The notes: a model not told the origin generated them from the letters alone. A stretch of 64,000 nucleotides of DNA from an uncultured Gammaproteobacteria bacterium (GCA_964616855.1 CAZTUJ010000001.1:192301-256300); one strand, 5' to 3'; counted from the first letter of the stretch, positions 34,928 to 39,437 are shown. Program-made: numbers and translations.

Positions 34928-34931
34928 TTTT

Positions 34932-34960
34932 TAGACAAAATCTCGTTTTTTTGCTATAAT
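34932..34960 (+). promoter_or_regulatory. Strong candidate promoter for the lemA operon
   Basis: tagaca (34932-34937, 5 of 6 to TTGACA), a 17-nt spacer, then TGcTATAAT (tataat at 34955-34960). Confidence 0.6.
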
Positions 34961-34965
34961 TATAA

Positions 34966-35016
34966 GGCTAATTTATTAAATTAGCCGGCAAGGGAATTGA
35001 TTCCCTGGTCCCGGCC
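34966..35016 (+). promoter_or_regulatory. Structured 5' leader (two hairpins) upstream of lemA
   Basis: Hairpin 1: ggctaattt (34966-34974) pairs with aaattagcc (34978-34986). Hairpin 2: agggaa (34991-34996) pairs with ttccct (35001-35006), nested inside gccgg (34984-34988)/ccggc (35011-35015). The outer stem of hairpin 2 competes with the 3' arm of hairpin 1. No U-tract follows. Confidence 0.4.
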
Positions 35017-35026
35017 ACATTAAATT

Positions 35027-35584
35027 ATGACTATTTGGATTATTCTCGGCCTCATCGTACTTTTAGCTTTAGTGCTGATAGCGATGTATAATGGCCTTAT
35101 TCGTGTTAAGAACCGCGTTGACGAAGCTTGGAGTGATATTGACGTTCAATTAAAGAGACGCCATGATTTGATTCCTAACCTTGTTGAGACTGTTAAAGGC
35201 TATGCTGCCCATGAACAAGTGACTTTAGAGAACGTGATTAAAGCCCGTAATGAGGCGATGAACGCTCAAGAGAGCCGTGATCCCAATGCGGTCTTAAAAG
35301 CAGAGAATGCACTTTCTTCTACCTTGAAGTCAATTTTTGCTCTTGCGGAAAGTTATCCGGATTTGAAGGCTAATCAGAACTTCTTAGAATTACAGAGAGA
35401 ATTAACTGATACTGAAGACAAGATTATGGCCTCCCGCCGCTTCTATAATACTAATGTCCGTGATTTCAATACTAAGCTTCAAGTTTTTCCGACTAATATC
35501 TTCGGCCGAATGCTCGGCTTTAAAGATTATTCTTTCTTTGAAGCAGCCGAATCGGAAAAGGAGCCAGTGGCCGTTAAATTTTAG
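35027..35584 (+). CDS. lemA: LemA family membrane protein
   Basis: N-terminal TM helix followed by YNGLIRVKNRVDEAWSDIDVQLKRRHDLIPNLVETVKGYAAHE and RRFYNTNVRDFN, typical of LemA. Confidence 0.85.
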   Translation: MTIWIILGLIVLLALVLIAMYNGLIRVKNRVDEAWSDIDVQLKRRHDLIPNLVETVKGYAAHEQVTLENVIKARNEAMNAQESRDPNAVLKAENALSSTLKSIFALAESYPDLKANQNFLELQRELTDTEDKIMASRRFYNTNVRDFNTKLQVFPTNIFGRMLGFKDYSFFEAAESEKEPVAVKF

Positions 35585-35606
35585 GATTATTTAATAATTA
35601 AAATAT

Positions 35607-36365
35607 ATGTGGATTTACATTGTTGTTGCTTTCATCATTTTAATTCTCGCTTTTTTAAAGCAGGTTAATCAGTATGAACGCGGAGTGGTCTTTACCATGG
35701 GTCGCTATTCCTATGTTATGCAACCTGGTTGGCGTCTTTTAATTCCGGTTTTTCAGTCTTTCCGCAAAGTTGATATCCGGGTGAAGGCGGTTGATGTTCC
35801 TGATCAGAAGGCGATTACTCGTGATAATGTTTCGGTTACCGTGAATGCGGTTATTTATTATAAAGTGGCGGCGGCGGAAAAAGTTATCATTGAAGTTGAA
35901 AATTATCAATATGCCATTTCGCAGTATGCGCAAACCACTATGCGCAACATCGTTGGTGAAGTTACCTTGGATGAATTACTAGCTCAGCGCGACAAAATTG
36001 CTGATCGCATCAGAGAAATAGTGGAAAAGGAAACGGGTGATTGGGGTATCCAAGTTAATAATGTGGAATTGAAGGATGTATCTTTGCCTGAATCAATGGA
36101 AAGAACGATTGCTAAGCAAGCAGAAGCAGAAAGAGAGAAGCGGGCAGTGATTATTAACTCTGAAGGTGAATTAGCGGCCTCCACCAACATCTCCCAAGCC
36201 GCTAAAGTGTTAGCAGAGACTCCTGGCGCCTTGCATTTACGCACCTTGCAGGCGATTAATGATATTTCTTCAGATAGTTCTAATACCGTAGTTTTCCTGA
36301 CACCAGTAGAAGTATTGAGAGCCTTTGATGGCTTTGCTAAAAAAATGACCCAAGACAATAAATAG
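35607..36365 (+). CDS. SPFH/band-7 (stomatin-like) membrane protein
   Basis: N-terminal TM helix, then VNQYERGVVFTMGRY, DVPDQKAITRDNVSVTVNAVIYYKV and AKQAEAEREKRA. Confidence 0.85.
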   Translation: MWIYIVVAFIILILAFLKQVNQYERGVVFTMGRYSYVMQPGWRLLIPVFQSFRKVDIRVKAVDVPDQKAITRDNVSVTVNAVIYYKVAAAEKVIIEVENYQYAISQYAQTTMRNIVGEVTLDELLAQRDKIADRIREIVEKETGDWGIQVNNVELKDVSLPESMERTIAKQAEAEREKRAVIINSEGELAASTNISQAAKVLAETPGALHLRTLQAINDISSDSSNTVVFLTPVEVLRAFDGFAKKMTQDNK

Positions 36366-36375
36366 GGAATTAAGT

Positions 36376-37293
36376 ATGACAAACTTATATTCATATAGTG
36401 CTGTCAATAAGCGAAAAACCTGGTTTTTAATGACCGGGTTTTTCATCTTTATCATGCTGGTCGGTTACGTCTTCGCTCAGGTGATGGATGAGCCCGGCAT
36501 TGTCTATTTAGCGGTGATTATTAGTGTGGTAATGAGCTTTGTCAGCTATTGGTATAGTGACAAAATTGTTCTATCAATGTCTGGCGCTAAAGAAGTGGAT
36601 AAAAATAGTGGTCGCGAACTTTATCGCCTGGTAGAGAATCTTTGTATAGCCGCCGGTTTGCCCGTGCCCAAAATTTATATTATTGAAGATAGCGCCCCCA
36701 ACGCTTTTGCTACTGGCCGTGATCCTGAGCACGCCGCTATCGCTGTTACCTCTGGTATTTTAGGAAAATTGGAGAAAGTCGAGTTAGAGGGAGTGATTGC
36801 CCATGAGCTTTCTCATATTGGTAACCGCGATATCCTTATTTCTACCATCGCTACCGTGTTGGTAGGAGTGGTGGTGTTGTTAGCCGATTGGTTCCGGCAT
36901 TGGTCATTTTTAGGTGGCCGCCGAAATAATAGCGACAGCAATAATAATAATCAGTTGGGGATGATTATGGTGGTCTTAGCCCTCGTCTTTGCCATTTTGG
37001 CTCCAATTTTTGCTCAACTCTTGCAATTAGCCGTTTCGCGCAAAAGAGAATTTGCCGCCGATGCCGATGCCGCTCTGTTAACCCGTTACCCGGAAGGATT
37101 GGCGCGAGCCTTAGAAAAACTTAGTGCTGACCGTGAACCCTTGGAAGCGGCTAATCGGGCCACCGCTCATATGTATATCGTCTCTCCTTTTAAAGGAAAA
37201 GAGGGTAAAGGTCAGATTTCTTGGTTTACTAAAATGTTTATGACTCATCCGCCGATTACTGAAAGAATTGCTAAATTGCGTGGCTCTTTATAA
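36376..37293 (+). CDS. htpX: HtpX-type M48 zinc metalloprotease
   Basis: PNAFATGRDPEHAAIAVTSGIL, the HELSHIGNRD (HExxH) motif, EFAADADAA and the C-terminal THPPITERI. Confidence 0.9.
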   Translation: MTNLYSYSAVNKRKTWFLMTGFFIFIMLVGYVFAQVMDEPGIVYLAVIISVVMSFVSYWYSDKIVLSMSGAKEVDKNSGRELYRLVENLCIAAGLPVPKIYIIEDSAPNAFATGRDPEHAAIAVTSGILGKLEKVELEGVIAHELSHIGNRDILISTIATVLVGVVVLLADWFRHWSFLGGRRNNSDSNNNNQLGMIMVVLALVFAILAPIFAQLLQLAVSRKREFAADADAALLTRYPEGLARALEKLSADREPLEAANRATAHMYIVSPFKGKEGKGQISWFTKMFMTHPPITERIAKLRGSL

Positions 37294-37297
37294 ATAT

Positions 37298-38359
37298 ATG
37301 GATATTAAGGATTTTGAAAATCGTCATGATTGGCTGAAAGTTTGGTCAGGTAAATGGAGCTTTCATTCTTGCTCTCAGTTTGGCGAGATGTGGTCTGTTC
37401 GTCCGGCTATAGGTGGCGTTCCGGCTTATCCTTACGTCGTTTACATTCACCGGCAGACTAGCAGTGATTGTTGGGTGAGTCAGCTTGATCGTGATAATTT
37501 TTGTCATCTTCTGAGATCAGAAATTGAACAAGATGAGAATCGAGCTCAGTCTTTAGCGGATTCCCTAAAATCAAGTACTGACAATACCTTGGCTTTTATT
37601 AAAGAACACTCCGAACAGAAAGTTGACCGGTTAATTTATGATAATTTTTGGGAGCATATCGCTGTTTATTATTTAGCCCATATTTACATTAAGTATATTG
37701 TTGATTATCTTTCTCCTGAGCAGTTGGAAAAATATCTACCCATTTTTGAAGAGGCGCGGGTTTATGCCGAGCCGGTTTTTCATGAACAGGAACTTTTCAT
37801 GACTATTATTGCCGAGCAAATTGCCCAGTCTAACAAGTTAGCTACGGAATTAATCCTTTGCACTACTAAAGAAGAATTACACTCTTATTTTCAAAAAGGG
37901 ATTCTACCAGCGGTGGCATTATTGCAACAAAGATTTGAATTGTCTGCCCAATTTTTTTCCAGAGGCCAACGGCAAGAATTTATTGGTGCGGAGGCCGAGC
38001 GGGCAGAGTCTATTCTCTTGCCTGAACCCGGAGAGCACTTGCTCAAAGGGCAGACCGCCTATCCTGGCCAAGCTCGTGGCCGGGTGCGGATTGTCCGCGA
38101 TCCCTTACATTATCAAGGTGACTTTGTTGAAGGCGATATTTTGGTTACCGGTATGACCAGGCCGGAATATCTACCTTTCATGAGAAAGTCGGCCGGTTTC
38201 ATTACTGACGCTGGCGGCATTCTTTCCCATGCGGCGATTACTGCTAGGGAATTAAAGAAGCCTTGTATTATCGGGACGCAGACGGCTACAAAAGTATTAC
38301 AGGACGGCGACTGGGTGCTCATGGATGCTGATTTAGGGACGGTTACAAGAATAAATTAG
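37298..38359 (+). CDS. Protein with unknown ~240-aa N-terminal region and C-terminal PEP-utilizing-enzyme mobile (phosphohistidine swivel) domain
   Basis: C-terminus reads GQARGRVRIVRDP...GDILVTGMTRPEYLPFMRKSAGFITDAGGILSHAAITARELKKPCIIGT, the PpsA/PPDK swivel signature with the His. No ATP-grasp or PEP-binding TIM domain is present. ATG at 37298, 4 nt after the htpX stop. Confidence 0.7.
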   Translation: MDIKDFENRHDWLKVWSGKWSFHSCSQFGEMWSVRPAIGGVPAYPYVVYIHRQTSSDCWVSQLDRDNFCHLLRSEIEQDENRAQSLADSLKSSTDNTLAFIKEHSEQKVDRLIYDNFWEHIAVYYLAHIYIKYIVDYLSPEQLEKYLPIFEEARVYAEPVFHEQELFMTIIAEQIAQSNKLATELILCTTKEELHSYFQKGILPAVALLQQRFELSAQFFSRGQRQEFIGAEAERAESILLPEPGEHLLKGQTAYPGQARGRVRIVRDPLHYQGDFVEGDILVTGMTRPEYLPFMRKSAGFITDAGGILSHAAITARELKKPCIIGTQTATKVLQDGDWVLMDADLGTVTRIN

Positions 38360-38382
38360 TTAGTAAATAAATTATATAATTT

Positions 38383-39333
38383 ATGAATACTCAAGAAATT
38401 TACGAATTAGCAATTAGTCAAGGATTGAAAGCAGATTTACGCGGGGAAGCTTTTGTGCAAAAGCATTTAGATAAGCTGAAGAAAAAATATGAAGATTTAA
38501 GTGAAAAAGAAAAGCTCGCCTTTGACCAGGAGTCTTTGTCTAATCCCTATTCCGATTCGCGCGTTCTTTTTGCCGGCGCCCCTAAGGATGTAAAAAAGAT
38601 TTTGGCTGGCATTGATATTGAGGGACCGGAATTATTATATGCCCAGCAGCGTGGTGATATTGATTTAGTAATTGCCCATCATCCTGAGGGCTTGGCCCTG
38701 GCTGATATTTCCACAGTGATGCATTTACAAGCTCAAGTTTTAGCTCAGTATGGTGTGCCGATTAATGTAGCCGAATCCGTTATTCAACCGCGGATTTCCG
38801 AAGTGACACGTGGAGTTAGTCCCATTAATCATCAGCGCGCGGTTGATTTTGCCCGTTTGCTTGGTTTAGATTTTATATGCTTGCATACGCCCGCCGACAA
38901 TTTATCGGCACAATTTGTGATTAAAGCCATTGAGCAGGAAGGTGATAAGCTGGAAACAGTGGGCGAGTTGGTTGATTTTTTAAAAACTATTCCTGAATAT
39001 GCAGCGGCAGAAAAGTTGAAGGCTGGTCCTAAAATCTTCGCCGGCACACCTGAGCGTAGTCTAGGTAAAGTCGTCGTCACTGAGTTTACCGGTGGCACTA
39101 GTGGTTCCAAAGATATTTATGAAAAGATGTCTCAATACGGGATTGGTACTGTTATTGGCATGCACATGAATGAAGAACACCGCAAAGAGGCGGAGAAATA
39201 TCATATTAACGTTATTATCGCCGGGCATATGTCTTCGGATTCTCTAGGTATGAATTTACTTTTAGATGAAATTGAAAAACAGGGAATTGAAATTATCCCG
39301 ATTTCTGGCTTAATTCGAGTAAAGCGTTTCTAA
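38383..39333 (+). CDS. NIF3-like (DUF34) putative dinuclear-metal protein
   Basis: DLVIAHHPEG, ICLHTPADN and IIAGHMSSDSLG resemble the His-rich NIF3 metal-site blocks. This was assigned by eye only. Confidence 0.45.
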   Translation: MNTQEIYELAISQGLKADLRGEAFVQKHLDKLKKKYEDLSEKEKLAFDQESLSNPYSDSRVLFAGAPKDVKKILAGIDIEGPELLYAQQRGDIDLVIAHHPEGLALADISTVMHLQAQVLAQYGVPINVAESVIQPRISEVTRGVSPINHQRAVDFARLLGLDFICLHTPADNLSAQFVIKAIEQEGDKLETVGELVDFLKTIPEYAAAEKLKAGPKIFAGTPERSLGKVVVTEFTGGTSGSKDIYEKMSQYGIGTVIGMHMNEEHRKEAEKYHINVIIAGHMSSDSLGMNLLLDEIEKQGIEIIPISGLIRVKRF

Positions 39334-39337
39334 ATAT

Positions 39338-39363
39338 AAACTCCGCCGCAAGGCGGAGTTTTT
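39338..39363 (+). terminator. Rho-independent terminator ending the lemA operon
   Basis: Stem ctccgcc (39341-39347) pairs with ggcggag (39352-39358) around loop gcaa, followed by a T5 tract. Confidence 0.85.
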
Positions 39364-39437
39364 AGAACTTAATAATCATTATCGCTTATTTCTGTCAAGA
39401 TTTAATTATATTGGCGGATATATTATACTAAGAGCAT

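Follow-up and report, generated by a model that had tools for sequence, protein, structure and literature searches.

What do genes that lie end to end between one promoter and one terminator have to do with each other? The question is raised by a unit of five genes: lemA, an SPFH gene, htpX, a gene for a protein with a C-terminal phosphohistidine "swivel" domain (here called the swivel gene), and a NIF3-like gene. They lie in a 64,000-nucleotide stretch of DNA recorded as coming from an uncultured Gammaproteobacteria bacterium (GCA_964616855.1, CAZTUJ010000001.1:192301-256300). The whole of this 64-kb stretch is referred to as the window; coordinates are positions in it, and every part of the unit lies on its + strand. 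An initial annotation of the locus read the last two genes as adding a phosphotransfer- or metabolite-linked input to a LemA-SPFH-HtpX membrane quality-control module. The explanation that we favor, and consider quite probable when taken as a whole, is a different one: this is one promoter-to-terminator unit, built in layers, into which the swivel gene has recently been inserted, and the protein that it encodes is half of a dikinase like rifampin phosphotransferase (RPH) or HpeH.

The insertion site of the swivel gene

Comparing presence and absence in close relatives settles the question of the module quickly. Contigs of the closest relatives (L165, L167, L169 and L170) were reached through the 90% cluster of the NIF3-like protein. 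Their LemA and HtpX are 96-97% identical, and their NIF3-like proteins 92-95% identical, to those of the window; their gene order is ileS-lemA-SPFH-htpX-NIF3-ruvA-proS-mreB-mreC, and at the place of the swivel gene they have a spacer of 37-41 nucleotides (nt) between htpX and NIF3. The distant outgroups L085, L091 and L122 also lack the swivel gene and carry NIF3 directly after htpX, so that the swivel gene is to be seen as a gain in the window and not as a loss elsewhere. It begins 4 nt past the htpX stop codon, and ahead of NIF3 a remnant of the old spacer, its 3' end (TATATAATnTATG), is still present.

Two wider samples bear on the same point. One was anchored on HtpX and comprised 80 metagenomic loci (HtpX at 52-87% identity, neighbors placed by tblastn); 56 of these were informative upstream, with at least 1.5 kb ahead of htpX, and 56 were informative downstream, with at least 1.2 kb. 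The swivel gene is found downstream of htpX in none of the 56. The other sample was anchored on the swivel family and comprised 81 loci from GTDB genomes and metagenomes, not one of which has NIF3, SPFH, or an adjacent lemA or htpX: the nearest cases are L061, with lemA-htpX ~10 kb off, and L080, with lemA 2 kb off, and solitary members of the family stand in unrelated gene contexts.

How does a true five-gene module fare, that is, one in which the swivel and NIF3-like proteins would feed phosphotransfer or a metabolite signal into LemA-SPFH-HtpX quality control? The genes are tightly packed from a conserved promoter to a conserved terminator, the swivel start codon is so close behind htpX that co-expression is very likely, and the order of the five genes is kept in a sister contig, L081. 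L081 is uninformative on this matter, however, because its entire neighborhood is syntenic with the window; apart from it, the five-gene order was found only within the same species (L163 and L164), and is in that sense essentially not conserved. With the site empty in relatives so close and the swivel gene missing from every informative htpX locus, and with none of the unit's other genes beside it in the swivel-anchored loci, such a module is very improbable, and this part of the initial annotation has to be given up: the swivel protein is outside the protease module.

Insertions recur in the spacer that follows htpX. In other relatives this spacer is occupied by open reading frames (ORFs) of 129 and 352 residues, by an IS200/RayT-like ORF, or by a small membrane protein together with a methyltransferase; in still others, a U32 peptidase gene follows htpX, or ruvA does so directly. 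(Coordinates of some of this cargo, with labels that were read from sequence motifs, are given in Table 1.) The swivel gene itself matches its neighbors in GC content and in GC content at third codon positions, and no full-length relatives of it were found on IMG/VR viral contigs or in GenBank phages. A TTG start at 37268, which would make the swivel gene overlap htpX, was considered and rejected: the alignment of 30 homologues begins at the ATG at 37298.

Is the inserted gene functional? Compared with L081, the swivel protein is 85% identical, with a non-synonymous divergence (dN) of 0.0875 and a ratio of non-synonymous to synonymous divergence (dN/dS) of 0.068; the proteins of the other four genes are 97-100% identical, with dN of 0.002-0.023 and dN/dS of 0.002-0.015. 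Non-synonymous change in the swivel gene is 4-50 times faster than in its neighbors. That it evolves faster than any other gene of the unit, and stands as a single copy away from any ATP-grasp gene and any array of swivel genes (of the kind described below), would suit a non-functional hitch-hiker, the decaying remnant of an array that happens to lie in an operon. We regard this as highly improbable: the dN/dS is in the range of that of ileS (0.058), the 54 substitutions are distributed evenly along the protein instead of being collected in one domain, the reading frame is full-length, the catalytic motif is intact, and the fold is predicted with high confidence. The gene is clearly under purifying selection and, judged by these sequence comparisons, looks functional.

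A separate observation concerns synonymous divergence (dS) from L081, which is 1.29 for the swivel gene and 1.55 for the NIF3-like gene; for six flanking genes it is 0.74-0.91. Recombination with a more divergent donor could have raised dS over the segment 37298-39333.

The swivel protein and its family

Pfam places a phosphoenolpyruvate (PEP)-utilizers mobile domain (PF00391; 8e-24, 83.5 bits against a threshold of 23.1) over residues 278-347 of the swivel protein, and over these only. The domain bears the T/SxxGGxxxH loop by which the catalytic histidine of such enzymes is defined (PMC12167813), in the form T303-DAGGILS-H311; T303, G306, G307 and H311 are invariant in 31 homologues, and invariant charged residues are also found in the N-terminal part of the alignment (K132, D136, R154, E158, E165, E193 and R212). 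NCBIfam models for PEP synthase, RPH, PigC and RedH, together with PRK08296 and PRK06241, match only the last ~110 residues, and the match to PDB entry 8a8e (5e-22) is confined to residues 232-349. An identification as PEP synthase (PpsA) or pyruvate phosphate dikinase (PPDK) was rejected: PF00391 is the only one of their domains found, and the models NF005057 and TIGR01418 score 104.6 and 89 bits where 598 and 740 are called for. The names "PEP synthase" and "pyruvate, water dikinase" that databases attach to this family are over-annotations; the Patescibacteria and DPANN proteins so named would not be gluconeogenic enzymes but RPH/HpeH-like dikinase halves, with consequences for metabolic reconstructions. 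A reading of the unit as a defense system was also dropped: none of its five proteins matches a PADLOC defense model at E <= 0.001.

What does the fold add? The AlphaFold2 model of the swivel protein has a predicted local distance difference test score (pLDDT) of 93.4 and a predicted template modeling score (pTM) of 0.89. Its top Foldseek matches are structures of RPH (5fbu, 5fbt and 5hv1; E = 1e-13, probability 1.0, 266-272 columns), and the similarity spans well past the ~100-residue swivel domain, into part of the RIF-binding domain. The N-terminal domain of the swivel protein is about half the size of that RIF-binding domain.

In two-component dikinases ATP charges the swivel histidine, from which the beta-phosphate goes on to the substrate; HpeH, PpsA and CreH are the substrate-binding and swivel components of such enzymes, and the ATP-grasp component (HpeI, PpsB) is a separate protein (PMC12167813). 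By analogy with these enzymes, and from its modeled fold, the swivel protein would be a solitary substrate domain joined to a His-swivel, that is, the counterpart of HpeH or PpsA in a two-component dikinase. Its His311 would be phosphorylated (or pyrophosphorylated) by a separate PPDK_N ATP-grasp protein, whose gene would lie in another part of the genome, and the swivel domain would then carry the phosphate to a substrate bound by the N-terminal domain.

It is in other genomes that the family is seen to be linked to PPDK_N. Proteins of ~350 residues make up this well-conserved family, which has 1049 matches, full-length at 40-56% identity, from Patescibacteria and from Nano-, Woese- and Micrarchaeota. 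The 81 loci hold 231 swivel ORFs (median 476 residues), and a stand-alone PPDK_N ATP-grasp gene is present in 29 of 82 loci (at 35-78% identity, mostly >55%). The homologue P0006 in L082, 56% identical to the window's protein, is encoded between a 316-residue PPDK_N gene, which it follows directly, and five more swivel genes. PPDK_N proteins of this size (~315 residues) are abundant: the one from L082 has at least 7964 matches in the protein collection, and none among the matches listed (the best 120 of these) lies on the window's 626,278-bp contig.

Tandem arrays of 6-12 swivel genes on the same strand, spaced at 1-1.5 kb, occur in Patescibacteria and in DPANN (L031, L014, L065, L026, L023, L082 and others). 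The components can also be fused: giant ORFs of this kind are listed in Table 1, one of them, in a Woesearchaeota metagenome-assembled genome, with its domains scored by Pfam. Paralogues in one array share the swivel domain, and their N-terminal domain parts more weakly; going by sequence, an array looks like a diversified set of substrate modules. Recurrent neighbors of the arrays are a family of ~315-residue proteins with an RH..H motif (10 loci), TrmB-like regulators (8), HAD hydrolases (6), Sua5/YrdC (4) and DUF5674 (3); a separate neighbor cluster from two loci (represented by an ORF of L002) matches His_Phos_1.

Could the swivel protein do without an ATP-grasp partner, either as a metabolite-to-acceptor phosphotransferase or as an Enzyme-I-like phosphocarrier that serves a protein substrate? 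HpeH on its own moves phosphate from 4-phosphoacetophenone to acetovanillone (PMC12167813), the window has no PPDK_N gene, and solitary copies of the swivel gene elsewhere (for example in L011 and L012) have none within 10 kb. The family profile, moreover, aligns over residues 154-345 with residues 30-224 of the Enzyme I N-terminal domain, the helical HPr-binding subdomain included. That match is weak, however (E = 1e-10), and comes mainly from the swivel part; no partner of an HPr-like or PEP-binding kind was seen, and the family is linked or fused to PPDK_N in many genomes. Action without a partner is accordingly judged unlikely.

If the swivel protein is, as we hold, half of a dikinase, to what sort of system does its family belong? 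A tentative proposal, for which we would claim somewhat less than an even chance, is that it is a large Patescibacteria/DPANN system in which one highly conserved PPDK_N protein of ~315 residues charges up to a dozen swivel paralogues, arranged in tandem or fused, and of which the gene in the window is a dispersed module. Were this so, and were each module to phosphorylate a different small molecule, a multi-substrate device for scavenging or trapping would be possible in ultra-small symbionts with little biosynthesis, and the window would be an example of how a stress operon can capture a single module and express it. A search of the searchable literature found no description of swivel-gene arrays in Patescibacteria (CPR) or DPANN, which is not proof of novelty; the one paper found to mention rph-like genes of these bacteria is a resistome survey, which counts them (PMC8651080). 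The organization in arrays and fusions may be the sign of a phosphorylation system still to be explored, in organisms of largely unknown physiology. The main interest lies in these multi-swivel arrays and giant fusions, outside the window.

Promoter, terminator and the layers between them

Much of what the initial annotation said of the unit's layout stands. The five ORFs and the gaps between them (22, 10, 4 and 23 nt in the order lemA/SPFH/htpX/swivel/NIF3) are as it gave them, Pfam agrees with all five family assignments, and the promoter and terminator at the two ends were both found and are both conserved in relatives. The promoter is the top site in a 7.5-kb scan, with 11 of 12 consensus positions and the TG of an extended -10 element; promoter-like sites in that scan number 20, against 14.5 +/- 3.7 expected, a total not above chance. 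It is identical in five close relatives (L081, L165, L167 and L169 among them), and its extended -10 architecture upstream of lemA is recognizable in many more distant ones. The terminator folds into a 10-bp stem with a GCAA loop, followed by a U run (-17.6 kcal/mol, z = -5.9); it was not called in a consensus scan because its T run is short. Close relatives keep the stem and vary the loop, and distant relatives have another stem and U tract at the same place. The 5' leader folds at -20 kcal/mol (z = -2.5) and is not conserved beyond the near clade. Rfam yielded nothing meaningful, whether for the whole window at gathering thresholds or for the leader at E <= 1.

The intergenic regions on both flanks are nearly identical to those of L081, at 97 of 99 positions between ileS and lemA (34928-35026) and at 98 of 104 positions at 39334-39437, although dS of the adjacent genes is near saturation. 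Identity on this scale points to strong constraint on the promoter and the structured leader, and to constraint on the terminator and on the block ahead of ruvA. The latter block (TTGTCAAGATTTAAT ... AGATATATTATACTAA) is kept even in relatives whose HtpX is only 69-77% identical.

Does the spacing of the genes itself argue for an operon? The unit sits within a same-strand run of ~38 kb (14479-52714) and ~35 ORFs, most of them 1-30 nt apart, that includes ileS, ruvA and proS, as well as mreB and mreC, by the gene calls for the syntenic L081. The tight spacing of the five genes is not distinctive, because most of this run is equally packed; spacing alone is unreliable evidence for an operon here, such packing being typical of a very compact genome. 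The gaps that flank the unit, 99 and 104 nt, are among the larger ones in the run. It is the conserved promoter and the conserved terminator that make it probable, as the initial annotation had it, that the five genes are co-transcribed as one unit, and since the swivel gene has no room for a promoter of its own, its expression probably depends on read-through of transcripts started at the lemA promoter. The case is also a caution: where genomes are compact and their genes co-directional, a functional module does not follow from tight spacing and a common promoter.

One can think of the unit as having been built up in four layers: 1) The conserved core would be lemA-htpX, a pair for membrane-protein quality control. 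An association of LemA with HtpX was part of the initial annotation and is borne out: of the 56 informative loci, 52 have a lemA gene ahead of htpX in the same orientation, and in 32 the two genes are directly adjacent. In this group the pair is robustly conserved, and insertions of other genes into it are recurrent. 2) The gene for an SPFH scaffold protein would have been interposed in this clade only; the 11 of 56 loci in which it separates lemA from htpX all belong to the near clade, where ileS, too, is retained upstream. 3) The NIF3-like metal protein is encoded after htpX, and its gene would belong to a local housekeeping backbone, ileS ... ruvA-proS, sharing the transcript. It is found downstream of htpX in 7 of 56 loci (directly adjacent in 3), and follows htpX directly, at 25-41 nt, in L085, L091, L122, L165, L167 and L169. 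Because this adjacency is limited to a clade in which ileS, ruvA and proS are equally syntenic, it carries no specific functional signal. 4) The swivel gene would be the recent, single-gene insertion into the 37-41-nt htpX-NIF3 spacer. The unit itself is, in short, an ordinary composite operon.

The proteins of the first three genes match their families in Pfam. LemA matches PF04011 (5e-60, 202 bits against a threshold of 26.2), the SPFH protein matches PF01145, Band_7 (4e-43, 147.8 bits against 23.6), and HtpX matches PF01435, Peptidase_M48 (5e-32), has the HELSH motif, and scores 342.4 bits with NF003425, just short of the cutoff of 355, over a full-length alignment. Identification of the SPFH protein as HflK or HflC was rejected on the scores of the corresponding equivalog models (69.9 against 159 bits and 39.4 against 134 bits). 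SPFH proteins are known to partner or modulate membrane proteases. An SPFH gene beside a membrane protease gene recalls HflKC-FtsH, stomatin-NfeD and QmcA; here, however, there is no NfeD gene, and the SPFH gene is interposed only in the near clade. Multicopy QmcA/YbbK is cited in PMC2636767 as rescuing an ftsH htpX double mutant. From what is known of the families, and from the conservation of lemA-htpX, it seems likely that LemA, SPFH and HtpX act jointly in membrane-protein quality control. The SPFH protein diverges in a pattern unlike that of the proteins on its two sides: it is 100% identical to its counterpart in L081 but 86-87% identical to those of the swivel-less L165, L167 and L169, to which LemA and HtpX are 96-97% identical.

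The NIF3-like protein matches PF01784, DUF34_NIF3 (1.5e-7, 31.7 bits against a cutoff of 23.4), and, over residues 56-310 (255 residues), PDB entry 3rxy (4e-33). Its HHP, HTPAD and GHMSSD motifs fall at the HHP, HTxxD and GHxxxD positions that we take to be the dinuclear-metal ligands of the NIF3 family. It scores 23.8 bits with the YbgI/SA1388 equivalog model TIGR00486, for which the cutoff is 130.6. In relation to NIF3/DUF34 proteins of the YbgI type (3rxy was deposited as "NIF3 protein"), it belongs to a divergent subfamily and has an extra N-terminal extension of ~55 residues.

A hairpin shaped like a terminator lies inside the htpX coding sequence (-18.8 kcal/mol, z = -6.2). All 12 of the near relatives examined have it; the changes in L090 and L091, where the peptide differs, are compensatory, and the fourfold-degenerate sites in its stem (ACC, GGG) are fixed. 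Could it be a mere by-product of a conserved peptide? Only partly so: near-clade sequences fold at -15 to -22 kcal/mol and their synonymous-codon shuffles at -6 to -10 kcal/mol, the fraction of shuffles for each sequence being 0-0.03 in most members of the clade, and the hairpin is missing from distant homologues in spite of an identical peptide. It may serve as a translation-coupled attenuator or as another element of the mRNA; to speculate, it could attenuate transcription into htpX and the later genes when translation is uncoupled.

Table 1. Features of the five-gene unit (positions in the window) and features of other loci (positions preceded by the locus)
Feature	Position	Strand	Description
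sigma-70-type promoter, extended -10	34932-34960	+	TAGACA-17-TGcTATAAT, upstream of lemA
structured 5' leader	34966-35020	+	hairpin GGCUAAUUU-AUU-AAAUUAGCC, then GC-rich segment
lemA	35027-35584	+	185 residues, N-terminal transmembrane helix; PF04011
SPFH/Band-7 gene	35607-36365	+	252 residues, stomatin/prohibitin-like membrane protein; PF01145
htpX	36376-37293	+	305 residues, M48 zinc metalloprotease, HELSH motif; PF01435
hairpin within htpX	36413-36444	+	terminator-shaped RNA hairpin, codons 13-23; A5, 13-bp stem, U5
swivel gene	37298-38359	+	353 residues, ATG start; PF00391 over residues 278-347
NIF3/DUF34-like gene	38383-39333	+	316 residues, 3rxy type; PF01784
intrinsic terminator	39338-39363	+	stem-loop and U run, end of unit
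giant fused ORF	L017:8981-20263	+	3761 residues, 1 PF01326 and 8 PF00391 (Pfam); Woesearchaeota
giant fused ORF	L065:1438-8490		putative PPDK_N-swivel fusion
giant fused ORF	L022:8201-14185		putative PPDK_N-swivel fusion
giant fused ORF	L061:8303-12928		putative PPDK_N-swivel fusion
cargo in post-htpX slot	L087:6929-8364		
cargo in post-htpX slot	L110:6929-7537		IS200/RayT-like
cargo in post-htpX slot	L131:1310-2306		methyltransferase
cargo in post-htpX slot	L096:1435-1977		

The dikinase reading and known enzymes

How well does a recently inserted dikinase half stand up? Several observations weigh against it: 1) The window contains neither a PPDK_N gene nor a second swivel gene. 2) TM-scores of the swivel model to RPH are low, 0.39-0.42, because the orientations of the domains differ. 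3) Sequence comparison links the N-terminal ~230 residues to no solved structure, save for the weak profile match to Enzyme I. 4) The whole protein has 353 residues, and the catalytic histidine of HpeH is residue 581; the N-terminal domain is correspondingly much shorter. 5) No target-site duplication or inverted repeats are found at the site of insertion. 6) The hairpin within the htpX sequence could stop part of the transcripts before the swivel and NIF3-like genes. The empty site in close relatives, the similarity of fold and the linkage of the family to PPDK_N in other genomes are the observations on the other side, and with these in hand we continue to regard the explanation as probable.

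With the PEP synthases and PPDK, the swivel protein shares a phosphohistidine swivel domain, homologous to the central one of those enzymes; unlike them, it has neither an ATP-grasp domain (PF01326) nor a PEP/pyruvate TIM barrel (PF02896). RPH, its best structural match, has the His-swivel at the C-terminus, as does the swivel protein. RPH differs in being a single chain of ~865 residues with a fused ATP-grasp, sequence identity is ~20%, and the NCBIfam models for RPH give the window's protein 46-57 bits against cutoffs of 999-1700.

The two-component dikinases (HpeHI, the phenylphosphate synthase PpsAB, CreHI and AcvAB), of which RPH is the fused form (specifically, of the HpeHI/PpsAB/CreHI type), offer the closest parallels in design. 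They and the swivel protein have in common a C-terminal His-swivel (behind what, in the swivel protein, would be a substrate domain), the T/SxxGGxxxH loop, and a residue two before the histidine that is not the regulatory threonine of PEP synthase; the PPDK_N gene that adjoins swivel genes in other genomes would correspond to their separate ATP-grasp component. The differences are also plain. The window's protein has no Pfam or sequence match to the substrate domain of HpeH or PpsA and no partner gene in the window, and the genes around it provide no context of aromatic catabolism. The swivel family, in contrast to the two-component dikinases, is confined to Patescibacteria and DPANN, usually in arrays of up to ~12 paralogues or in giant fusions. 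The enzyme type, then, is a known one, and the inserted gene is a short variant of it that is specific to Patescibacteria and DPANN.

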